A DNA stretch of 64,000 nt, taken from contig JAZDCZ010000085.1 in assembly GCA_036679605.1 (NCBI GenBank), positions 95,404 through 159,403 on the forward strand, written 5' to 3'. Origin of the DNA: Gemmatimonadota bacterium (GTDB taxonomy: Bacteria > Gemmatimonadota > Gemmatimonadetes > Gemmatimonadales > GWC2-71-9). The translations under genes and the position numbers were made by a program. The notes beneath the pieces were generated by a model. It ran no database searches, was not told the origin of the DNA, and saw only the letters and a program-made list of their open reading frames with translations. Shown here in pieces: positions 31,784-54,036 of the stretch. Every line of letters starts with the position of its first letter. The stretch's first letter is position 1.

Positions 31784-31856
31784 GGCCAGGTAGCTCAGTT
31801 GGTAGAGCAGGGGACTGAAAATCCTCGTGTCGGTGGTTCAATTCCGCCCCTGGCCA
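31784..31856 (+). tRNA. tRNA-Phe(GAA), intact, CCA not encoded
   Basis: GGCCAGG/CCTGGCC acceptor stem, GCTC/GAGC D stem, CTGAAAA anticodon loop, GGTGG-TTCAATT-CCGCC T arm. Confidence 0.97.
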
Positions 31857-31860
31857 CTCC

Positions 31861-43648: not shown

Positions 43649-43879
43649 TCAGCGCTGCCGAGAGGTGATCTCAGTCATGGGGCTAAGATGCAGTGCCGAA
43701 GCTCAGGTGGCCAGCGATCAACCCAGTGTGCTAGGTCCCCCCAGCAATACTCCTCCGTGTGCCTCGAATGTGCACGAACTCCTGTACACTGGTGACACTA
43801 AATCGCCCATCGACTGACCGATCAGCGCCCGTTTCCGCGTCACTGGTGTACACTGGTGCCTGTTAGTACCACCCCGTAG
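43649..43879. repeat. Kinase stub (MTEITSRQR*), leader and arm segment preceding a tRNA fragment
   Basis: Collinear with about 53568-53791; contains TGTGC repeats and CACTGGTG x3. Confidence 0.85.
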
Positions 43880-43972
43880 GAGGACTGAAAATCCTCGTGT
43901 CGGTGATGGACGCCCCATCCCCGTCACCACCACCGCTCGCGTCTGCTTCGCAACCAATTCCGTCTCGGGGCA
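43880..43972 (+). pseudogene. 3' fragment of tRNA-Phe with 46-nt T-loop insert (degenerate)
   Basis: GAGGACTGAAAATCCTCGTGTCGGTGAT + insert 43908-43953 + CCAATTCCGTC. Confidence 0.85.
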
Positions 43973-43986
43973 TTCCACACTTGCCT

Positions 43987-44553
43987 TCAACCCCAAAACC
44001 GATCGAGGAGATCACCCACCCCCAACACCTCCGACCATGTATCGAGGTATGCGCGGTCCAATGTCTCGCGATTCATGACAACGAGACTCTCGACGTCCCG
44101 TCGCTGAACTTCCGATACCTCGTCGCCGAGGCGGTACCACCGCAACTTGGCGAGCAGAATATCTTCCTTGGTGACCACCCGGAGTGGCACAGCGCCACCT
44201 GGCATTACGATCTCCACCGCCCGACGCGCCGCCTCTCTATCGAATGCAGTACGAAGCGGGAACACGTCCACCTTGAGATAGGTCTGGCGGTGAATCAAGT
44301 TGAAGCTCGTCCCGGAATCGAGGGCGGCGATTGCCTGATGGAGATCTGTAATGAACTCGCCGGAGAGCCCGTCCACTAGCCCGGGGAGGTGGCGTTGCTC
44401 CAGTGCCGCAACGATGTCTACATCGTTTGTCGCTCGGAATTCACCGTGGACGCTGCTTGCCAGCGAGCCCGAGATGAAGTAGGTGACATCCTCGCGCTGG
44501 AATGCCGTTGCAACCGACTCGACGACTGCGCGCAGCTCGGATACATCGGTCAC
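43987..44553 (-). CDS. Pol-beta-superfamily nucleotidyltransferase
   Basis: GSLASSVHGEFRATNDVD (GS...DxD), KVDVF, EDILLAKL; GTG start overlaps upstream TGA. Confidence 0.8.
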   Translation of the reverse strand: MTDVSELRAVVESVATAFQREDVTYFISGSLASSVHGEFRATNDVDIVAALEQRHLPGLVDGLSGEFITDLHQAIAALDSGTSFNLIHRQTYLKVDVFPLRTAFDREAARRAVEIVMPGGAVPLRVVTKEDILLAKLRWYRLGDEVSEVQRRDVESLVVMNRETLDRAYLDTWSEVLGVGDLLDRFWG

Positions 44554-44807
44554 GGGGAGGAGAACAGCGCGGAAACTATTCGTTCGGCGATTTCCGGGCC
44601 GTACAACTGTTGAGCGAACCGCTCGACGACCGCCGAGGTCCCCAAGTGCCCAACGTGGCTGGTTGCTCCCTGCCACGCCAGATCCCGTACAAACGCGCTG
44701 AGCGCCAGAGCCCTGGTCAAACGCTCCGGAGCGGGGACGGCCGCGATGAGTTCCAAGTAACTGGATCGTGCGGCGCTGTCAGTGTCCACGGCTGGGGGCC
44801 CGTTCAT
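44550..44807 (-). CDS. Small partner protein of the nucleotidyltransferase (TA-like pair)
   Basis: 85 aa, GTGA coupling; upstream TTGACC-N17-GACACT-N5-ATG leaderless-type promoter. Confidence 0.7.
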   Translation of the reverse strand: MNGPPAVDTDSAARSSYLELIAAVPAPERLTRALALSAFVRDLAWQGATSHVGHLGTSAVVERFAQQLYGPEIAERIVSALFSSP

Positions 44808-44845
44808 GCCAAAGTGTCGCCGATCCCCGAGCGCTGGTCAACTAG

Positions 44846-45110
44846 GCCGGTGTTGGGGTTGGGAGCGGACGGGGTGCCGATGTATAATTCTCCCGCTTCG
44901 GGCCAGGTAGCTCAGTTGGTAGAGCACGGGACTGAAAATCCTCGTGTCGGTGGTGGACGCTCCCTCCCCGCCACAACCCCACTCGCGTCTGCTTCGCAAC
45001 CAATTCCGCCCCTGGCCACTCCAGAACCCTCGTCAGACGGGGCTTTTCGCTATCTGAGCCTGGTCCATCACCCCTCGAAAACCCTTTCGTGTGCATGAAT
45101 GTGCGTTGAA
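44846..45110 (+). repeat. Duplication of tRNA-Phe locus (promoter, tRNA, terminator, arm repeats)
   Basis: Collinear with 31729-31948 plus 45-nt insert. Confidence 0.9.
44901..45018 (+). pseudogene. Full-length tRNA-Phe copy interrupted by a 45-nt T-loop insert
   Basis: 73 nt tRNA + insert 44955-44999; G27C and T55C changes; TATAAT retained. Confidence 0.88.
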
Positions 45111-45112
45111 AG

Positions 45113-45167
45113 AGTACCCACCTCAGCCTTCAACTTCTCGAAGAAGTTCTCGACCACGATCAATTCG
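45113..45167 (-). repeat. Degenerate orphan kinase 3' tail (ELIVVENFFEKLKAEVG)
   Basis: Aligns to 62461-62518 with several substitutions. Confidence 0.8.
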
Positions 45168-45208
45168 CTCGCCGCCTACCCTCCGAGATTCTGTTCTGCG
45201 CTGCAATC

Positions 45209-46621
45209 TCAATCCCTGGCTCCAGTCCCAAGATGCTCTTGTAGGAATTGAACCATTCGCGGCCAATAGGCGGCGTTGGCGGCCGCCGCATCCTTAGGGT
45301 TGCCACCGAGGAGAAGAGATCCGAATCTATCGTCGGTTCTGGGAAGATTCGGGGCGCCCAGTCGGTGTCCCGCTCCCGGGTAGGCGAGGTGCTCGTATGG
45401 GAACGCGAACTCATGCGTTTCGAGCCTCCGGTAGGCGACCTCCGAGAGCAGCGTGGACGGCAAAGCCAGATCACCGACTCCCGAAATGAGGAGTACCGGC
45501 CCATTGATGCGCTCCACCGGGATCACTCCCTGCTCGAGATAACCCGGATTCACGAACCCATAGAACAAATGGCGGGTGAGAGACACGGACGTTTGGTCAA
45601 TGCAGGACCATCCTTCCTCGGCGCCCCCCGGTCTGCACTCCGCGGGCTGCTCGGAAATCAAGGCAGCCCGCAGTGTTTTGGTTAACGGCATTCTGGGGAA
45701 GCGGGGAACGGGGTCGCCGCGATAGGTAAACTGGAAACCGTTCACGCCACCGCTCTTGATCGACACGACGGCCCTGATGTCCGGAAAGCGAGAGCCGACG
45801 AGAAGCGCTACGACACCGCCGGTCGACATCCCGACCACTCCGACCCGGTCGGCGGCGACTTCCTCCTGCCGCTGCAACCAGTTGATCGCTGTCTCGAAGT
45901 ACTCGAGTGGGATTTCCGACGTGGTGCTCTCAGGCAAGCCGTCCGCGCCGCACCATTGAAGCGCGAGCGTCACGAAGCCATGCGCCGCAAGCAACGCAGC
46001 CAGGTGTTCGGGGGGACCACAAAACCCACCATGTGGGACGAGTAATGCCGGCCGTGGCGCCGACCCCGAAGGCACGAACAGCGTGCCCACCAGACCCTCC
46101 TCGTGCACCGGCCGTCGGGCGACATCGCTGTCAGCGAAAAGACGCTCCAGCGTGTCCGCCAGCATCGGCCGGCCTTCAGCTTCGGCGCTGAGGGCCACCA
46201 GGAGGGGCTCGCCCGGTTGCACAACGCCGTCGAACTGGGGGATTGGCACGTCGTCAGGCTCGTCTCGCTCAACCCGAGTCATCGCCCAAAAGAGCCCCAT
46301 GGGATCCACGGAGTCATAGGAGCCGGCGATCGGCGCCAGCTCGCTGAGATCTACGATGCCCTGGGAATCCGCCTGAAAAGTGACACTTGCTTGCCATACC
46401 GCACCACCATAATTCTGCAGTTCGCCACGCAGGGTGACTTCCTCTCCTGGCTGCAGCCCCGAGATCGTGATCCGGACCGGCTGGTCAATGACCGCTCTCC
46501 GAGGGGAGATTGCCATTTGATAGCTGGTTGGTTCTTGAGCGCTAACCTCTGAAGCCGTAACTCCGACGGTGGCGAGGAAGATTGAGGCTATCAAGAAATA
46601 ATCCGCTGTGGTTTCGGACAT
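45209..46621 (-). CDS. Acyl-CoA thioesterase/BAAT-family alpha/beta hydrolase, exported
   Basis: GSYDSVDPMGLFWAM, IPLEYFETAI, GMSTG, YPGAGH. Confidence 0.88.
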   Translation of the reverse strand: MSETTADYFLIASIFLATVGVTASEVSAQEPTSYQMAISPRRAVIDQPVRITISGLQPGEEVTLRGELQNYGGAVWQASVTFQADSQGIVDLSELAPIAGSYDSVDPMGLFWAMTRVERDEPDDVPIPQFDGVVQPGEPLLVALSAEAEGRPMLADTLERLFADSDVARRPVHEEGLVGTLFVPSGSAPRPALLVPHGGFCGPPEHLAALLAAHGFVTLALQWCGADGLPESTTSEIPLEYFETAINWLQRQEEVAADRVGVVGMSTGGVVALLVGSRFPDIRAVVSIKSGGVNGFQFTYRGDPVPRFPRMPLTKTLRAALISEQPAECRPGGAEEGWSCIDQTSVSLTRHLFYGFVNPGYLEQGVIPVERINGPVLLISGVGDLALPSTLLSEVAYRRLETHEFAFPYEHLAYPGAGHRLGAPNLPRTDDRFGSLLLGGNPKDAAAANAAYWPRMVQFLQEHLGTGARD

Positions 46622-46675
46622 AGTTTGCCTCCTTCAGGCATTTGAAGTCCCAGAGCGACCGGATACCTAGTCGAC

Positions 46676-46894
46676 CTAACGACTATCCGGGTCGGATTCG
46701 TAGTCGAGAATGTCTCCGGGTTTGCACTCGAGCGTCCTGCAAATGGCATTGAGCGTATTGAAGCGGATGCCGCGGACCTTGCCGGTCTTCAACAGCGACA
46801 TGTTGGACAGCGTGATGCCAACCTCCTCTGCCAGTTGCGTGAGCGACATTTTTCGCTGCACCAACAGCAAGTCCAAGTTCACTTTGATCGCCAT
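46676..46894 (-). CDS. XRE/YozG-type HTH regulator
   Basis: MSLTQLAEEVGITLSNMSLLKTGKVRGIRFNTL...CKPGDIL. Confidence 0.92.
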   Translation of the reverse strand: MAIKVNLDLLLVQRKMSLTQLAEEVGITLSNMSLLKTGKVRGIRFNTLNAICRTLECKPGDILDYESDPDSR

Positions 46895-46897
46895 GTC

Positions 46898-47539
46898 TCA
46901 GATGACTGCTTCGCTGTCCACGCGGTGCTCTGCCCCAAGTCGCAGCACCTCTGCCATCAGCAGAATCACGAGCGCCGTGAAGAGGTCAGCCTTGTCGAAA
47001 TGCTGGAGGTACAATCCGAAGAACCCTCGCGGCGGGATCAGTGGAAACAGCGGTTGGAGGTCCATGTACTCCAAGCTTCGGGAGAGGGCGGAAAAAGCGG
47101 CGTGGAGAACCATCAGCAGGCTGATGGTTCGAAAGCGACGTGCATTAGCCAGCGTGAGGGGCTGCTTGGCTACCAGGCTTGCGAGGATCTGTCTGAGGTT
47201 CCAAAGAATGAACGCGAAGGCACCCCATCCGATGACGACCATCCCAAGAGCGGAGACGAGATCCAGTGCGTCGCTCCTCTCGCTTGTCTGATAGTGGATG
47301 CGCGAACGATTGGTCTCGAAGTTGTAGACCGTGATGTCGGGGCTCGCCGGCTGAACTATTTCCGTCGGCAGCTTGAGCTCGACGTATACCGTGCCTTGCC
47401 GCCCACCGGGTCCGTGCGAGGTGCGTTGGCGCACCATGACGCCCAGCACGAAAGCCAGGAGGAGCAGCCAAACAATAAGCGTTACTTCGGTGATCAGTCT
47501 CAAGGCCCACGCCAACGACCGATTTCCTAGCAGCTGCAT
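46898..47539 (-). CDS. DUF2975-family membrane protein
   Basis: 4 TM, PLTLANARRF, AEVLRLGAEHRVDSEAVI terminus, directly upstream of YozG-type HTH. Confidence 0.85.
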   Translation of the reverse strand: MQLLGNRSLAWALRLITEVTLIVWLLLLAFVLGVMVRQRTSHGPGGRQGTVYVELKLPTEIVQPASPDITVYNFETNRSRIHYQTSERSDALDLVSALGMVVIGWGAFAFILWNLRQILASLVAKQPLTLANARRFRTISLLMVLHAAFSALSRSLEYMDLQPLFPLIPPRGFFGLYLQHFDKADLFTALVILLMAEVLRLGAEHRVDSEAVI

Positions 47540-47632
47540 CGAGCCATCCCCCCTGCCCTATGTAGGGTCGCAGCGTCGGTCTCCAAAGCCCCACCAACTC
47601 CTAGAACGACGTATTAGGGCGATTACTGTACT

Positions 47633-47682
47633 ACAATATATTATTATTGTCTAACATAAAATCATTGCCAATTAATAGCAAT
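47633..47682. promoter_or_regulatory. AT-rich inverted repeats, putative operator of the DUF2975-HTH operon
   Basis: ACAATA-N6-TATTGT (47633-47650) and ATTGC-N9-GCAAT (47664-47682). Confidence 0.5.
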
Positions 47683-47820
47683 ACCAGAGCCACCAGGGAG
47701 GCCGGGAGGTTCTGCGGGAGTCCCCTGTTCGTGTGCGTCCTGGGACCTCTAGATCTCCACCAATCCCTTCACCTCGCTCGCCGTCATCGAACGACGACCC
47801 CACTGAACCCGATTCCGGTC

Positions 47821-47957
47821 AGTGGGGACCAACGTCCCCCCTGTCTAGATGGGACCCATTGGGCGAAAAGACTGTACCTCTGTGCTGAGCGAGTGTGTCA
47901 TAGGCCACCATGCTTCCGGTACGTCAGCTGCGACTCTGCCAAGTGCCAGAATCCCAC
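47821..47957. repeat. 137-bp GGGACC-motif repeat, copy 2
   Basis: Closely matches 35331-35467. Confidence 0.9.
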
Positions 47958-48157
47958 CCCCATGAAACCTGCGACTAGCATCCCTATGGGATATTGAACA
48001 GGACGATTGCAAAGGACAGAGCGAAGAAGGCTAGAGCCCGAATGCGTTGCGGTCTTATTACAGCTTCAGCGGGTAGTCTTGGGGGCGTTCTACCTGCGGA
48101 TGGGACAGCCCGCCGGTTTGCTCGAGATGGCTTCTTCTCGGGAGTCGGGGATCCGAG

Positions 48158-48215
48158 CTAGTTCTCCACCTTCGCCTTCAACTCCTCGAAGAAGTTCTCG
48201 ACGACGATCAACTCG
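48158..48215 (-). repeat. Orphan kinase 3' tail (ELIVVENFFEELKAKVEN*)
   Basis: Near-identical to 62461-62518, 15 nt after the stop of kinase 48231-50927. Confidence 0.9.
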
Positions 48216-48230
48216 GGCACGTACGGGCCA

Positions 48231-50927
48231 TTACCTCCGAAGGGTGGCGTCCAGTTCGGCTAGGAAGTTATGAACGAGCACGAGGTCTACGGACGCCAAC
48301 CCGGAGGTCACCGGAAGCGCAAACAGAAAACGCTGACCGTCCGGCGACACGGCATAATAGTGGTTATCGTCGTTGGCGACCGCCGTTGTCGAAAACAACA
48401 TCCGTGGCGCGCCGACCGAGAACGTTGATGCCGTGTTGACATCCGCAACCATAACTCGCGTGCCCGACCGATAGACGAGCGCTCGCCCGTTGAGTGTCCA
48501 GAGAGGCTCGGTACCGCCGCCGTTCGAAACCTGCCACAAGCCCTCGTCGACGTTTGGGAACGGCTGGACGTACACGTTCTTGCGACCACTTGAATCAGAT
48601 GCGTAGGCCAGCCACTTCCCGTCCGGCGAAATGCGGGGCGACGTCTCCTCGTACTCCGTTGCGACAAGTTCGGTATCGGCGGTATCGCTCCCAGGTCGGA
48701 AGCCCAAGATGTCCCCGCGGCCCGCCGCCTCGTCACCGGTCCGATAGATGATCCACTGTCCGTCAGGCGACCACAGACCCTCCCAAATTGGCCTTTCGCG
48801 ATCCACTACAACCCGAGCACCCCCGCTGCCGTCCGCCCGCTGTACCCAAAGGTCCTGTGAGCCAAGTCGGTTGGAAACGAACATCAGCGAGTCACCGCGA
48901 GGGCTCCATTCGGGCCGAATGTTCTGCGTGCCTTCGAACGTGAGTCGTGAGGCGGCCCGATCAGGAAGCGGTTTCACGTAGATGTCGATTCGGCCGGACT
49001 CGTCGAGCAGATTGTAGGCGACGCGTTGTCCATCGGGCGACAAACTCATCCCACCAGTGGCGATGTACGAAACCCGCCACGTCGTGTCGGGTTCGCTGGT
49101 GGCGCCCATCCAATCGGTCCACACGAATCGCGATTCGAACACCGGTCCGTCGGAGCCCCCCCGGGGCACGTAAAGCACCGTACCGTTCAGCGCGACCTCC
49201 AGATCCGGACGAAACGTGTTAGTACCGAGCCGGACGGGTTCGAGCACGGGAACCGCGTCGCCAGTTATCGCGCGACTCGCGAGATCGAAGGGCGCCGCAA
49301 ACACGTCACCTGCAATCGTCGCATAGACGATGTGTCCTGAGGCCACGTACCACGCTGCGTTGGGTCCGACGAGCAATTCGCGCACTTCACCGGAGGTGAT
49401 GTCGAAGATGTTGAGCTGCGCGCTTTGTAGGTCCTGTGTCTGCGTGGTGAACAGCAGTGCATCCCCGCCGGGTAGGGCCGAGAGGTGGTTGAAGTACCTG
49501 TCGGAGGGGTTTTCGTAGAGGAACTCCGTCGGTCCGCCGCGCGCCGGAACTCGGTACGCGCGGGCTCCATCGAACCCCGTCGCGACGATTGTCTCATTGT
49601 CCAGCCACGTGGCGTCGTACAGCGCCGAATCCGACAGCGTGACCACCGTACCTCCCGAGCGCGCCATGCGCTTCAACCTACCGTCGTCGATGAAGGCGAT
49701 CGACTGCCCGTCGGGAGAAAACCTTGCATAAGGCAGAATCGCAGTGTTCCTTCCCGTCCGCTGTTCGAGGCGAATAGGTTGGCGCTCACCCTGCTCCTTG
49801 AGCCACAATTGCCACTCCCCTCCCTCCCCCGAATCTGGGAACACCACAGCAGACCCGTCCGGGGAAAGTGCTGCGCCATCGACGAAACCCGGCATCCGCT
49901 CCGCGCCGAACCGCGAAAGCAGAATACGCGTGTACGTAGTCGTGAGCTGCCTCTCGTTGCCAGGACGTACGACGGACCAGAGCAAGGCACCGACTACCGC
50001 ACCGGCAACGGCTGTCGCCGCAATCGCTCCCACCCACGACCGCGGCGGCGAGGATTTGGCCACACTTGCATCAATCGTTACGCCGAGGGAGAAGCCTGTG
50101 TTACCCAGTGCCTCGGCAAACTTCGCCGCCGTCTCGAACCGGTCAGCCCCCAACTTCTCGAGCGACTTGGCGAGGGCGGCAGTGACGTGAGGGGGCACCG
50201 ACTTTCGGAGCTTCGTGACCGGGTCCGCAGGTTCGGTCACGATCTTCATGATGATCGCCTGCGCCGACCCACCGATGTGCGGTGGCTCGCCCGCCAGCAT
50301 CTCATACAACACGCTCCCCAACGAGAAAATGTCCGAGCGGTGCGTAATGTCCTTCTCCGCCGTCGCCTGCTCGGGAGACATGTAGTGGGGTGTGCCAAGT
50401 GACAATCCCGTCTCGGTCATCCGTCCACCGGCTGCCGCGCTCACTGCCAACGCTATGCCGAAGTCTGCCACAACCGGGCGGCCGTCGTGCAGCAGGATGT
50501 TCTCCGGCTTGATGTCACGATGGATCACGTTGTGGCGATGCGCGTAGTCGAGTGCGTCAGCCACCTCGGTGGTGATCTTCACCGCTTCCTCGATGCCGAG
50601 TTGGGTTTCGCGGTTGAGTTTGTCCCTGAGTGTCTCGCCGTCGATGAACGGCATTACGTAATAAAGGAAAGAGTCTGCCTCGCCCGAATCGAACAGCGGC
50701 AAAATGTGGGGGTGCTGGAGGTTGGCGGTGGTGGTGATCTCCTGCACGAAGCGTTCGGCCCCAAGAACCGCAGCGAGTTCTGGTCGCAGCACCTTGACCG
50801 CGACCTTGCGCTTGTGCTTCAAGTCCTCGGCGAGGTAGACCGTCGCCATACCACCTTCACCAAGGTGGCGTTCGATCTTGTAGCGGTCCGCGAGGGCGGT
50901 CGAGAGCTTGGACGTGATCTCGGTCAC
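48231..50927 (-). CDS. Ser/Thr protein kinase, TM, TolB/PD40 beta-propeller
   Basis: VAVK, HRDIKPEN, DFG; repeated SPDG blades; GTG start overlaps upstream TGA. Confidence 0.93.
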   Translation of the reverse strand: MTEITSKLSTALADRYKIERHLGEGGMATVYLAEDLKHKRKVAVKVLRPELAAVLGAERFVQEITTTANLQHPHILPLFDSGEADSFLYYVMPFIDGETLRDKLNRETQLGIEEAVKITTEVADALDYAHRHNVIHRDIKPENILLHDGRPVVADFGIALAVSAAAGGRMTETGLSLGTPHYMSPEQATAEKDITHRSDIFSLGSVLYEMLAGEPPHIGGSAQAIIMKIVTEPADPVTKLRKSVPPHVTAALAKSLEKLGADRFETAAKFAEALGNTGFSLGVTIDASVAKSSPPRSWVGAIAATAVAGAVVGALLWSVVRPGNERQLTTTYTRILLSRFGAERMPGFVDGAALSPDGSAVVFPDSGEGGEWQLWLKEQGERQPIRLEQRTGRNTAILPYARFSPDGQSIAFIDDGRLKRMARSGGTVVTLSDSALYDATWLDNETIVATGFDGARAYRVPARGGPTEFLYENPSDRYFNHLSALPGGDALLFTTQTQDLQSAQLNIFDITSGEVRELLVGPNAAWYVASGHIVYATIAGDVFAAPFDLASRAITGDAVPVLEPVRLGTNTFRPDLEVALNGTVLYVPRGGSDGPVFESRFVWTDWMGATSEPDTTWRVSYIATGGMSLSPDGQRVAYNLLDESGRIDIYVKPLPDRAASRLTFEGTQNIRPEWSPRGDSLMFVSNRLGSQDLWVQRADGSGGARVVVDRERPIWEGLWSPDGQWIIYRTGDEAAGRGDILGFRPGSDTADTELVATEYEETSPRISPDGKWLAYASDSSGRKNVYVQPFPNVDEGLWQVSNGGGTEPLWTLNGRALVYRSGTRVMVADVNTASTFSVGAPRMLFSTTAVANDDNHYYAVSPDGQRFLFALPVTSGLASVDLVLVHNFLAELDATLRR

Positions 50928-53581
50928 CGTCCCAACGCCTTCAGTTCCTCGAGCCAATTCACCACCATCATTAGCGTCGAGGTGGAAACTCCACGCTGGA
51001 TCATCACGAAGCGTTGGTCATCGGGCGCAACGTCATACTCACGACTGGTGGGATCCGATTGAAAGCTGGACGCATCAAATAACGGTTGCACGTCCCCAAG
51101 CCGAACGACATCGCTCAGATCCACGCGACGTGAGACGAGTTCCCCTCCTGGAGTTCGGTAGAACAACTCCCGCCCACTATGCGCCCATACGGGTTCGCTT
51201 CCGCCGTCGACCGACACGCGCCACGTGTCCCCGCCTGCGTCGTGGAACTGCGTCACGAAGACCTCATCCTTGCCGAACTCTTCCCTCAACACATACGCCA
51301 CCCACCGGCCGTCCGGAGAGACCGTGGGCGCCCAAAGGACACCGCCGCCTTCAACCACGACGCGCTCCGTCGTGCCGCTGTCAGGATGCCAGGCGCGGAT
51401 ATCCACCTCTCCCACCGCACGCTCGACGTTATAGACGAGCCACCCATCGGACGACCAGATCAACGAACGGGTTCCTTTTGCTGGCGGCACCGAAAACCGT
51501 TCCGCCTGGCCACTCCCATCGGCATTTCGTTGCCACATCGTCGACGGCCATGATTCCTGGGAAATGAACGCGACCTTGCGCCCGTCTGGTCCCCATGCGG
51601 GCGACGTAAACGGTCCTCTTCCGAACGTCAACTGCGACGGCAGCCCGCCGCTCACATCTTTGGTCCACAGAGCGTCGCCTCCTGCGTTCAACACGAACAC
51701 CGCGAGGCGACTTCCGTCAGGCGAGAGGGATGGTTGAAAAAACCAGCCGCCCCATTCCGGATCGATCGGCGTGGCGTCCCCCGCACGATCGACCCAGACC
51801 ACACGACCAGTCTCCTGTTCACTACCGGGTGCATACATCAAGTGCCCGGTGTTAGAAACATCAAACAACGCAGCGCCGGCAAAATTGTCAATTCGTACGT
51901 CCCGTTGCAACACGGTGCCCGGCGCGGCAAACGCCATCGCACGCTCGTCATAGGTGGCTACCATCAGGTCACCGGTGTTGGTCACGTATGCTATGTCACC
52001 GTTCGGTAGGAATCGCCCAGTCACGGCCCGGCCCAACGAACTGACTTCTCCAGTCTCTAAGGACAAGACACCAATCTCCGTCTCATTCACCGACCGGATC
52101 CACAGCTGCATCAACACGTGGACCCCGTTCGGATGCGCATCGGGGTACTCATGGAATGATTCACCGCGACTCGTGTCCGGGATCGATACGATCTCGACGA
52201 CCCCGCCCGTTGAGGGAACACGTGTCAACCGGCGATTCCTCGTCACGTAGAGCCAATCGTCCACACTCCAATCGCCACCCCAGGGCATGACGGAATCCGT
52301 AATCAACGTCTGTATGGATCCACCAGCCACCGGAACCACGCGCAACTGGCGCGAGGCGACGAACGCCACATACTCGCCATCTGGCGAAAAGAAAGGGGCG
52401 ACTCCACCCTCGGTGCCCGGGAGCGGACGACTGGCTGGAGAGTTCAGATCGCGGACCCAGAGTTGCTGAATAGCCGTTTCGGACGTCCCGCGGCCGGGGT
52501 AGACGATTCGGGACCCGTCAGGCGCCAGCGCGAACTGTCGGTTTTGCGTCGAGAACACCCGTTCTTCTTCACCAAAGACAACGCCGACGCGCAAAACGTC
52601 CCGAGGAACGGGCCGCAACCATCCGAAGAGTGCGAGACCGACGGCAGCGAGCGCAAACACGCCGAGCACCACACTCGGACGTTGCCGCACCGCACTCGCC
52701 ACGGCGCCCACCGTCGATTTCGTCCCAGAGGACGCGGGCACCGTGAACGTGGTGTCCCCGAGAGCGTCGGCAAATGCCTCCGCGCTTCCGAACCGATCTG
52801 CAGGAAGTTTCTCCAACGCCTTCGCCGTCGCGGCCGCAACATGCGGAGGAATCGATTTCCGCAGTTCCGTGACCGACCGCGCCTCATCGGTCACGATCTT
52901 CATGATGATTTGTTGCGCTGTGGAGCCGACATGTGGCGGACTACCCGTCAACATCTCGTACAGCACACTGCCAAGCGAATAGATGTCGGAACGGCTCGTG
53001 AGATCCTTCTCGGCCGTCGCCTGCTCCGGACTCATGTAGTGCGGCGTCCCCAATGAGAGCCCAGTCTCAGTCATGCGCCCACCCGCTGCTGCACTTACCG
53101 CGAGCGCAATCCCGAAGTCCGCCACCATCGGGCGCCCCTCGTGGAGTAGGATGTTCTCCGGCTTGATGTCCCGATGGATCACGTTATGGCGATGGGCGTA
53201 GTCGAGGGCGTCCGCTACATCGCGGGTGATCTGCACGGCCTCCTCGATGCCTAGCTGCGTCTCCCTATTTAGCTTGTCGCGCAGCGTCTCACCGTCGATG
53301 TAGGGCATGACGTAGTAAAGGAAAGAGTCCGCTTCGCCCGAATCGAACAGGGGCAGAATGTGCGGGTGTTGGAGATTGGCGGTGGTTGTGATCTCCTGGA
53401 CGAACCGCTCGGCCCCGAGTACCGCCGCGAGTTCGGGGCGCAGTACCTTGACTGCCACCTTGCGCTTGTGCTTGAGATCCTCGGCGAGGTAGACGGTGGC
53501 CATGCCACCTTCACCCAAGTGGCGTTCGATCTTGTAGCGGTCGGCGAGGGCGGTCGAGAGCTTGGACGTGATCTCGGTCAT
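50924..53581 (-). CDS. Ser/Thr protein kinase, TM, TolB/PD40 beta-propeller
   Basis: MTEITSKLSTALADRY start, intact kinase motifs, SPDG repeats. Confidence 0.93.
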   Translation of the reverse strand: MTEITSKLSTALADRYKIERHLGEGGMATVYLAEDLKHKRKVAVKVLRPELAAVLGAERFVQEITTTANLQHPHILPLFDSGEADSFLYYVMPYIDGETLRDKLNRETQLGIEEAVQITRDVADALDYAHRHNVIHRDIKPENILLHEGRPMVADFGIALAVSAAAGGRMTETGLSLGTPHYMSPEQATAEKDLTSRSDIYSLGSVLYEMLTGSPPHVGSTAQQIIMKIVTDEARSVTELRKSIPPHVAAATAKALEKLPADRFGSAEAFADALGDTTFTVPASSGTKSTVGAVASAVRQRPSVVLGVFALAAVGLALFGWLRPVPRDVLRVGVVFGEEERVFSTQNRQFALAPDGSRIVYPGRGTSETAIQQLWVRDLNSPASRPLPGTEGGVAPFFSPDGEYVAFVASRQLRVVPVAGGSIQTLITDSVMPWGGDWSVDDWLYVTRNRRLTRVPSTGGVVEIVSIPDTSRGESFHEYPDAHPNGVHVLMQLWIRSVNETEIGVLSLETGEVSSLGRAVTGRFLPNGDIAYVTNTGDLMVATYDERAMAFAAPGTVLQRDVRIDNFAGAALFDVSNTGHLMYAPGSEQETGRVVWVDRAGDATPIDPEWGGWFFQPSLSPDGSRLAVFVLNAGGDALWTKDVSGGLPSQLTFGRGPFTSPAWGPDGRKVAFISQESWPSTMWQRNADGSGQAERFSVPPAKGTRSLIWSSDGWLVYNVERAVGEVDIRAWHPDSGTTERVVVEGGGVLWAPTVSPDGRWVAYVLREEFGKDEVFVTQFHDAGGDTWRVSVDGGSEPVWAHSGRELFYRTPGGELVSRRVDLSDVVRLGDVQPLFDASSFQSDPTSREYDVAPDDQRFVMIQRGVSTSTLMMVVNWLEELKALGR

Positions 53582-53791
53582 GGGGCAATAAGATGCAGTG
53601 CCGAAGCTCAAGTGGCCAGCGATCAACCCAGCGTACTAGGTCACCCGACTACTCTCTCGTGTGCGTTGAATGTGCACGAACTCCTGTACACTGGTGTCAC
53701 TGAATGACACTGAATTGCCCGCCGAACGGCCCACCAACGCCCGTTTCTGAGTCACAGCTGTACACCTGTACCTGTCAGTACCACCCCGTAG
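53582..53791. repeat. Kinase leader/promoter plus arm segment preceding tRNA fragment
   Basis: Collinear with 43679-43879; TGTGC repeats 53659-53680. Confidence 0.85.
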
Positions 53792-53883
53792 GAGGACTGA
53801 AAATCCTCGTGTCGGTGGTGGACGCCCCCTCCCTGCCACGACCCCGCCCGCGTCTGCTTCGCAATCAATTCCGCCCCTGGCCA
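53792..53883 (+). pseudogene. 3' fragment of tRNA-Phe (att-like) with clean 45-nt T-loop insert
   Basis: GAGGACTGAAAATCCTCGTGTCGGTGGT + insert 53820-53864 + TCAATTCCGCCCCTGGCCA. Confidence 0.9.
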
Positions 53884-53887
53884 TTAC

Positions 53888-53912
53888 AGAAACCCCGTCA
53901 GACGGGGTTTTT
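53888..53912 (+). terminator. Terminator homologous to the tRNA-Phe terminator
   Basis: AAACCCCG-TCAGA-CGGGGTTTTT. Confidence 0.8.
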
Positions 53913-54036
53913 CGTCTCAGTGGCTCCGCTCGAGCGCTTGGGAGATCCTAGGAAACTCTAGCCCTACTTCGGGGTTTCTATTGTCTACCTCTGATCGTGC
54001 GTAGTGTTCAAGGAGGGCTCGAGCCGGTGAGTTGCA

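Follow-up and report, generated by a model that had tools for sequence, protein, structure and literature searches.

The window (the whole 64,000-nt stretch of Gemmatimonadota DNA analyzed here) contains one intact tRNA-Phe(GAA) gene, with housekeeping genes upstream of it, and three further tRNA-Phe-like sequences, each interrupted by an insert of 45 or 46 nt (Table 1). The coordinates given in the original prediction, and the placement of each insert directly after T54, were confirmed for all three copies. Its description of the hosts as tRNA-Phe derivatives needs qualification: copy 2 alone is a full-length gene, and copies 1 and 3 are 3' fragments. The copy 1 host is decayed, with a G53A change and an altered acceptor strand; the copy 2 gene, which is split by the element and also has a C27:C43 mismatch and T55C, is for these reasons considered to be decaying. 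Positions 43876-44925 are identical to a contig of a public run; as that run may be the source sample, the match speaks only against a corrupt assembly.

Table 1. Features of the tRNA-Phe region, in window coordinates.
Feature	Position	Strand	Remarks
Intact tRNA-Phe(GAA), working gene	31784-31857	+	ARAGORN; left end of island-like block
Short repeated-motif cluster before fragment 1	43757-43860	+	repeats at 43757, 43769, 43783, 43792, 43847
Copy 1 host: displaced 3' tRNA-Phe fragment, from anticodon stem on	43882-43972	+	
Copy 1 twin-hairpin element	43908-43953	+	46 nt, after T54; followed by C replacing T55
Stretch between copies 1 and 2	43975-44900	+	piecewise homologous (blastn) to DNA upstream of intact tRNA-Phe in G001
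TATAAT box of copy 2	44883-44888	+	inside 43975-44900 stretch
Copy 2 host: full-length tRNA-Phe gene with promoter, element-split	44901-45019	+	
Copy 2 twin-hairpin element	44955-44999	+	45 nt
Copy 2 junction bases	G 44955, A 44999	+	
Copy 2 arm A	44956-44989	+	5-bp base, C-rich loop
Copy 2 arm B	44990-44998	+	3-bp stem; minus-strand GAA triloop
Second arm-type-like repeat cluster, before fragment 3	53659-53775	+	
Copy 3 host: displaced 3' tRNA-Phe fragment, from anticodon stem on	53794-53883	+	
Copy 3 twin-hairpin element	53820-53864	+	45 nt, between T54 and T55
Terminator-like hairpin	53890-53913	+	common to intact gene and copy 2; repeat family D9

Among the three window copies, none of 21 end columns varies, compared to 9 of 24 middle columns and one indel (Fisher p 0.002). 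On contig C214, a fourth tRNA-Phe copy differs at two of the six 5' bases, so the invariance originally claimed for both ends holds for the 3' 15 nt but not for the 5' end. T55 is kept in copy 3 alone, with C in its place in copies 1, 2, and C214; removal of the insert thus restores the T-loop exactly in only one of the four Phe copies.

The surroundings resemble a genomic island. The repeat block before fragment 1 recurs before copy 3 and on C214, and these clusters are putatively integrase arm-type sites; G001, with its partial homology to the stretch ahead of copy 2, is a same-genus genome. The partial tRNA copies lie downstream of the intact gene in direct orientation, as expected of att fragments, although this concerns the scaffold only. 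In tRNA-targeted islands as described in the available text of PMC9897764, displaced partial 3' copies likewise lie in the same orientation with cargo genes between; attR/attP fragments of this kind would explain the scaffold here, but those in that text are plain, without a recurrent insert at one position. Of 35 integrase matches genome-wide, none is on contigs C419 or C214, and none is left in the window. Most likely, at least six tRNA-Phe copies (in the window, on C214, and in genome G481) descend from a single insertion event in a Phe att module, which then spread and carried the element along.

The inserts are not confined to tRNA-Phe. T-loop inserts in the source genome number 17; they measure 16-157 nt, and their hosts are fragments of ten tRNA types. 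The C-rich family to which the window inserts belong also occurs in Arg, Pro, Ile, Trp, Gln, Met, Leu, fMet, and Cys fragments; Ser and Cys have sister forms. Close relatives of the window insert were found in 20 of 150 genomes of the bacterial family, and 37 of 39 strong matches are in tRNA arms. A genome has no more than some two dozen copies; in the source genome, all of these but one candidate are in tRNA-derived sequence. Homologues thus occur in many other tRNA types and genomes, contrary to the refuting condition set with the original prediction, and the original suggestion of a tiny mobile or processed element under structural constraint is supported in its mobile form. Matches were accepted at a bit score of at least 30 plus inspection, since in the covariance model used (R1, later rebuilt as R2) the pairs were shifted by one column, so that it worked largely like a sequence profile and its E-values were inflated. 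Simpler searches were less informative. Strict patterns gave no match in 400 other genomes of the phylum, but such patterns miss most of the members later caught by the covariance model; the 15-nt tail with one mismatch matched 19 of 61 relatives, with no excess over a reversed control; viral contigs yielded 3 and 101 pattern matches, none in a tRNA context; and a loose junction pattern returned noise in five genomes. Judged by eye, 70 of 76 metagenome matches and 15 of 20 from a genome-contig collection were chance-like and were discarded. Scans of the source genome by anatomy alone were noisy (67 vs. 29 in the control; 231 vs. 182) and served only to find candidates. No published description of twin-hairpin elements in tRNA arms was found, and the family is apparently undescribed.

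Nearly all members consist of two abutting hairpins: hairpin A, of about 30-35 nt with a covarying base, and hairpin B, with its short loops. In 11 rows found by tRNA homology alone, variable base positions form 21 of 22 possible Watson-Crick pairs, compared to 12 in shuffles; in a second test 87.5% of cells are paired, with 23 double changes, compared to 83% and 10.7 in shuffles and 68% or less in slid registers, although related genomes are not independent and both shuffle comparisons overstate the effect accordingly. Folding energy does not show structure: RNA folding of the inserts (z +0.4 to -0.9) and DNA folding of copies 2 and 3 were no better than for shuffles. The inserts can thus still be called structured, as first proposed, on the strength of covariation across the family and not of the folding of single inserts. 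The earlier idea of a mini-hairpin on the opposite strand is supported. Of 34 arm-B loops parsed, 25 have the form G..A on that strand, and none is GNRA or UNCG; judged by sequence, the loops fit DNA mini-hairpins, not RNA motifs. A G-quadruplex role for the C-rich loop was rejected, as only 1 of 22 inserts has four GGG runs on the minus strand. In 27 parsed matches, the junction bases are G...A in 8 and T...T in 10. Arm A can be identical in different hosts (36/36 nt in fMet and Lys(TTT) fragments), and arms are exchanged between elements as modules.

The insertion motif is GT^TC(A/G) in a tRNA arm, usually at T-loop positions 54/55 and also at 38/39 of tRNA-Pro GGG. In an unbiased scan of the source genome for split tRNA copies, 11 of 12 break at 54-56 and one in the Pro anticodon arm, where the site reads GGT^TCA and the element is the same; the target is therefore a motif in a tRNA arm. 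One Pro fragment, on contig C165, has a family member in the anticodon arm and another element in the T-loop. Target duplication amounts to nothing or to a single ambiguous T. Three mechanisms were rejected on theoretical grounds, since each predicts a second T at the right junction and none is there: crossover of the integron type at G^TT, insertion of the IS91 type at GTTC, and an IS110-type core of two bases. GTTCR occurs 5,559 times outside long ORFs; near-restriction to tRNA in spite of this would suit a route dependent on tRNA homology as well. The one candidate non-tRNA copy is in-frame in a Pro/Glu linker (C173:209719), where the G001 orthologue is too divergent for an empty-site comparison.

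Such an insert could also be read as a tRNA intron. Group I introns in the tmRNA T-loop are reportedly the subject of a 2020 bioRxiv preprint by Williams (10.1101/2020.01.27.920355). They likewise follow a U in the T-loop, and the site here matches one of their subsites in the available text of PMC11915505, if its “position 2” is 54/55, a mapping of our own. Position -1 is always a U, provided by T54 in all three window copies; a final G precedes T55 in about 10 of the 27 relatives parsed; and removal exactly restores three full-length genes in genome G520. The window copies end in A, not the terminal omega G, and T55 is replaced in 13 of 27 parsed relatives, so that, unlike in the tmRNA case, the terminal G is not constant and the T-loop is often not restorable. 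Insertions of 45-46 nt hold no group I catalytic core; Rfam found only tRNA and one weak unrelated match in the window stretch, and no intron family at 16 other loci. The archaeal-type bulge-helix-bulge (4-bp central helix, two 3-nt bulges) has at most two of four pairs in either register. Most hosts are island-end fragments without promoters, copy 2 has its anticodon-stem mismatch, and the arm-B loops suit DNA rather than RNA. The full-length cases checked are spare: an intact tRNA-Phe is present in the window, and in G520 an intact twin of the split Leu(TAG) lies at a distance of 5.3 kb. A joint across the insert that appears in contigs is the intact gene. Because about half of the relatives have T55 replaced and the hosts are mostly fragments or, where full-length and checked, spare, an intron is unlikely, and the earlier suggestion of an intervening sequence in a tRNA-like RNA is not upheld; an intron removed from the T-loop, whether a shrunken group I intron or one of a new, protein-spliced kind, seems highly improbable.

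Neither a transposase, integrase, nuclease, nor reverse transcriptase (RT) was found linked to the elements, and no mobilizing gene was among 122 of the 153 frames adjoining 40 loci. The HUH/RAYT-type nucleases proposed as candidates were looked for, and none was found linked to the elements. Y1 transposases occur in 12 of 19 carriers and 12 of 20 non-carriers, RTs in 5 of 19 and 3 of 20, and two single-contig carriers have neither. Four of the source genome's five Y1 matches were inspected; these carry other repeats, and no BLAST match to an insert lies beside them. No small GIY-YIG gene was found in the source genome or beside any element checked, and of the best 30 GIY-YIG loci of the order, one has any tRNA call. 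DUF559, GIY-YIG, Y1, and RT genes were rejected as movers for lack of a link to the elements. Neither a tail-only scan of the genome-contig collection nor a left-end scan of the source genome found a long form.

With moderate confidence, the inserts are a tiny non-autonomous two-hairpin insertion element targeted to GT^TC(A/G) in tRNA arms. They are site-specific, present in many independent tRNA types and, where checked, solely in spare tRNA sequence, with covarying bases, a near-constant arm A, and no target duplication beyond one ambiguous T. Movement is inferred from this spread over tRNA types, rather than from a filled/empty pair of one orthologous site. The element may be handled as single-stranded DNA, its minus strand presenting d(GNA) or d(GNNA) loops; an enzyme supplied in trans would read the bases at the feet of both hairpins, nick the folded tRNA arm at GT^TCR, and join the element in, often replacing T55. 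Insertions in the sole copy of a tRNA would be purged, and those in island-end fragments, duplicates, and extra genes would persist. More tentatively, this could be a new class among site-specific mobile DNAs (twin-hairpin elements of 16-157 nt), whose unrecognized single-strand enzyme reads, in any type of tRNA, an arm with GT^TCR in a stem-loop of 5 bp and 7 nt, with the ~33-nt arm as a ruler and islands locked, as a by-product, by ruined displaced tRNA halves.

Other routes to the same distribution can be imagined. In homing by repair, a nuclease would nick an intact GT^TCR arm and the break would be patched from an element-bearing tRNA arm, as single-stranded DNA or cDNA, pairing through the shared GT and CRA; the insert would destroy the site, and the junction bases would be copied along. 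Both junction bases do travel with the element, arms recombine between elements, and restriction to tRNA sequence is near-total. T-stems, however, stay tRNA-type-specific, which leaves two or three shared bases per side, and neither nuclease nor RT tracks the element, so that homing is rather unlikely. It is improbable that the insert is instead a lock selected by host or island, in which, owing to a split tRNA half at the island's far end, the tRNA rebuilt by precise excision would be a broken one; islands with a split half would be fixed, and the inserts kept for that reason. Most hosts do resemble att fragments, have repeated arm-type motifs, and lack an adjacent integrase, and copy 2, with promoter, whole gene, and insert, is the expected product of such recombination. 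The element nevertheless also occupies full-length genes that are extra, and one fragment has it twice; moreover, any T-arm mutation would lock equally well, leaving the conserved anatomy unexplained. Locking is compatible with the insertion element; an altered att site, as originally suggested, may be a consequence. Within the tRNA-Phe copies, which have flanking module sequence in common, a single neutral insertion was probably copied by later duplication; for the family as a whole this reading is already refuted and has next to no chance, given that members occupy two positions, reach at least nine further tRNA types, and show compensatory changes.

The insertion element points to an unrecognized DNA-joining activity aimed, whatever the isotype, at the motif that is most conserved in tRNA genes; its substrate is small enough for synthesis and testing. 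It would add a force shaping the hot spots of tRNA-targeted islands, since excision cannot regenerate a tRNA from a fragment that has been split. For annotation, the practical effect is that att sites and tRNA pseudogenes with such inserts escape the tools, and that the inserts may pass for new tRNA introns.

Among known systems, the REP/REPIN sequences and palindromic miniatures of IS200/IS605 are similarly short, gene-less, and hairpin-based, with no real target duplication (PMC6006769, PMC8266576); they too, as moved by RAYT (TnpA-REP) in the former case, are best read as single-stranded and served by an enzyme in trans, and a fixed short motif (here GT^TCR) without target duplication is like an IS200/IS605 miniature derivative. 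By the definition in PMC6006769, a REP is a short-looped stem of 7-20 bp with GT[AG]G at its foot. Here there is no such foot, GTGG arising solely at the junction of one subclass, and arm A in this class has a 3-5-bp base and a 24-nt loop; the copies are not in the hundreds per genome, and are confined to one tRNA-arm motif without a linked Y1 transposase gene. The main texts of both papers do not contain the word “tRNA”. Ssn nucleases recognize small DNA hairpins (SRM/NTS) strand-specifically, by sequence and shape (Chenal et al., 2025, PMC11893778), a likeness in hairpin size; the elements differ in having no small GIY-YIG gene beside them where checked, and tRNA is unmentioned in the available text of that paper. 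The degenerate SRM motif is in none of 17 inserts on either strand. Mitochondrial double-hairpin elements, which are organellar and thought to be mobile, have to our knowledge no fixed tRNA-arm target; they consist, like the elements described here, of two adjacent hairpins, which in the mitochondrial case are GC-rich.

The T-loop inserts are real and belong to an apparently unpublished kind of mobile DNA, miniature and palindromic, whose tRNA-arm target is unusual and for which no mover is known. In all three tRNA-Phe copies of the window, the originally stated insert coordinates and the position directly 3' of T54 proved correct. Copy 2 has a C27:C43 mismatch and a C in place of T55. Copies 1 and 3 start at the anticodon stem, and each is preceded by a group of short repeats, which we infer to be integrase arm-type sites. 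The exact 15-nt tail occurs four times in the 6.7-Mb assembly: in these copies, and in another Phe fragment, the fourth, which lies on contig C214 and carries an element with two base differences at its 5' end. The ends had been described as invariant. This is so for the three copies in the window, where none of the 21 end columns is variable but 9 of 24 in the middle are (p 0.002); once C214 is added it holds for the tail (0 of 15) but not the 5' end (2 of 6; middle, 11 of 24). Folding of single inserts was no better than that of shuffled sequences. A public-run contig, possibly from the source sample, matches 43876-44925 letter for letter.

Coordinates of features in the window and on other contigs (C) or retrieved loci (L)
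Feature	Coordinates	Remarks
Intact tRNA-Phe(GAA)	31784-31857	
Copy 1	43882-43972	insert 43908-43953
Copy 2	44901-45019	insert 44955-44999; whole tRNA-Phe gene, own TATAAT box
Copy 3	53794-53883	insert 53820-53864
~55-nt leader and Ser/Thr kinase gene start	40605, 43676, 53580-53630, 58817, 59820	~20 more copies in genome
~50-nt gene-end module	39024, 45128, 48176, 62479	>20 more copies in genome
Candidate outside tRNA sequence	C173:209719 (L344)	39 nt, in-frame, GGT^TCG
Tandem elements	C401:37630-37720 (L347)	one anticodon-arm site, Pro fragment
Split tRNA-Pro(GGG) 5' parts	C401:29900-30600 (L303)	two tandem copies
307-aa frame	C401:38670-39590	0.9 kb from tandem elements
Phe element, left end duplicated	L126:5962-6020	7-nt tandem duplication

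The arrangement is consistent with two tandem, decayed tRNA-Phe islands, and genes for kinases, transporters and hydrolases occur around and between the copies; tRNA-targeted genomic islands with displaced tRNA fragments are treated in the accessible text of PMC9897764. No integrase was found among 17 frames scanned around the copies, and the 35 integrase matches in the genome all fall on other contigs. Copy 2 probably arrived with its flank from a relative, since the DNA ahead of it resembles, piecewise, that upstream of the intact tRNA-Phe gene in a genome of the same genus (G001). Named records carrying the element are labelled Gemmatimonadota and have gene types in common with the window, which points to that phylum for the window as well; a few small contigs may be foreign, given 6.3% contamination of the assembly. 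Two short modules also recur: the leader precedes kinases and, as stubs, unrelated genes, and the gene-end module forms the last codons of kinase or propeller genes and recurs 3' of unrelated ones, which suggests cassette-like shuffling via shared gene ends.

The elements share a common plan: GT | N, arm A (S-A-Y ... R-T-S), an abutting arm B (Y-G-C ... G-C-R), N' | C-R-A. In 14 of 15 elements from this genome arm A measures 27-35 nt, both where it forms a long hairpin and where, as in the window, five pairs close a C-rich loop; arm B is much more variable (8-123 nt). Covariation is seen at the base of arm A (G-C/C-G, C-G/T-A), with 21 of 22 pairs Watson-Crick against 12 in shuffles (fraction 0.00025) over 11 rows, near-identical Phe and fMet copies having been dropped. 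Among relatives, an alignment of 52 rows, 13 of them weak, built with a model whose pairs sat one column off, has 87.5% of cells paired and 23 double changes (shuffles, 83% and 10.7; slid registers, at most 68%); kinship of the sequences inflates both tests. The first pair of arm B is C-G in 21 cases and T-A in 17. Read on the minus strand, its short loops are GAA, GCA, GTA, GTTA or GGTA in 25 of 34 parsed cases, five of the nine exceptions being mis-parsed long-arm forms; none is GNRA or UNCG. Loops of the d(GNA) and d(GNNA) types are unusually stable in DNA. Arms are also exchanged: fMet and Lys(TTT) fragments have 36 of 36 nt in common, and arm B of the same Lys element matches that of a Lys(CTT) element.

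Searched by tRNA homology alone, the genome yielded 17 inserts in T-loops, which measure 16-157 nt and are spread over ten tRNA types; the insert in Pro TGG arose by deletion within another repeat. A position-free scan, not exhaustive since it missed copy 1, found 12 split tRNA copies, 11 broken at 54-56 and the twelfth in the anticodon arm of tRNA-Pro(GGG). Elsewhere, a metagenome scan with both insert ends returned 76 loci, six of them (five distinct) in T-loops of Arg, Pro, Ile, Trp and Ser tRNAs and 70 apparent chance matches; a tail-only scan of genome_contigs gave 20, of which five are tRNA fragments, all from Gemmatimonadota, whose genomes on targeted search held further Phe, Cys, Ser, Gln and Trp copies. 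Having been picked by their ends, these matches are uninformative on end conservation. With a threshold of 30 bits, a model of the C-rich class matched in 20 of 150 family genomes, including one used in the seed. Of the 39 matches at or above that score, 37 could be placed in tRNA arms on visual inspection and 27 were accepted by an automated T-stem test. A corrected model (E 1e-7) matched in 3 of 71 family genomes against 0 of 79 others of the phylum. The samples behind both the family and the phylum counts may include G105 and G222, flagged as unpublished, on neither of which any positive claim is based.

A Pro(GGG) fragment (contig C165) carries a C-rich element at GGGGT^TCAGG in the anticodon arm, a site also occupied in relatives, and a second element in the T-loop; since base 52 varies among G, A and C, the target is read as GT^TCR. 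Not every GTTCR serves: of 37,416 occurrences in the genome, 5,559 are not within long ORFs and 149 belong to T-arm-like hairpins, and the sole candidate outside tRNA sequence, in a Pro/Glu-rich linker, is 85% like a Thr-fragment tail. The exact restoration of the T-loop on removal, originally described for copy 3, is no family rule: among 27 parsed matches, 13 retain T55 and another 13 have a different base there, the two junction bases varying together. Hosts are mostly tRNA fragments. In one genome (G520) the element precisely interrupts three full-length genes. An intact twin of Leu(TAG) lies at a distance of 5.3 kb; the others are extra Leu-body genes with CAC anticodons. Where redundancy was examined, the element lay in spare tRNA copies.

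On balance it seems probable that this is a non-autonomous element which would be handled as single-stranded DNA by an enzyme supplied in trans, would insert at GT^TCR within a folded tRNA arm, and would be purged from essential tRNA genes. In its working the element most resembles REP/REPIN or IS200/IS605 miniature elements (accessible text of PMC6006769 and PMC8266576). It does not pass the tests that define REP/REPIN or Ssn/SRM (accessible text of PMC11893778). With IS200/IS605 derivatives it has in common a fixed short target motif without clear target duplication, and no long form with its ends was found by a tail-only scan of genome_contigs or a left-end scan of the genome. No mover gene was found among the 122 frames scanned of 153 beside 40 loci, and Y1 transposases and reverse transcriptases do not track carriers. 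Small GIY-YIG and DUF559 genes are absent from the genome, and among the best 30 loci for small GIY-YIG genes of the order only one has any tRNA call. The 307-aa frame near the tandem elements may, judging by a motif, be an IS110-family transposase.

Repair-driven homing between tRNA arms, which the near-complete confinement to tRNA sequence would suit, is rather unlikely. A selected lock on islands is quite improbable; full-length extra genes also carry the element, and one fragment has two. An intron is very doubtful, as the inserts fail the defining tests of BHB introns and of group I introns (accessible text of PMC11915505 and Williams 2020). A single neutral event is barely credible; the covariance-model search originally proposed found homologues both outside the window and outside tRNA-Phe. 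A literature search, thin for subscription papers, found no published description of such inserts; examples could be present in supplements to the papers on tRNA, tmRNA and Ssn.

Several related arrangements were seen. In other genera (L109, L113, L114, L115; genomes G170, G285, G252, G188), duplicated tRNA-Phe ends lie 3' of the gene, the T-loop copy in G285 with a hairpin insert of unrelated sequence. Contigs C182 and C295, small and possibly from a contaminating genome, carry another intact tRNA-Phe, which differs in sequence, and a fragment that has no insert. At L303, two tandem copies of the promoter and 5' part of tRNA-Pro(GGG) stand upstream of the intact gene, and in each an 86-nt multi-hairpin of different design interrupts the anticodon-arm site. 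On C188, C212, C334, C13, C154, C401 and C426, an intact tRNA has behind it, within ~60-150 nt, a hairpin stretch and then another copy of the tRNA end from T55 on; these arrangements, some finishing in the arm-B motif, are perhaps residues of deleted islands. Finally, tRNA genes of 85-89 nt called Val(CAC) or Ala by ARAGORN occur on C88, C93, C162, C401, C91, C154 and C214 (judged by length only), in G520 (L400, L403, L407) and in G523 (L399, L401, L362); those drawn or read from the latter two have Leu-type bodies, and codon misreading could result.
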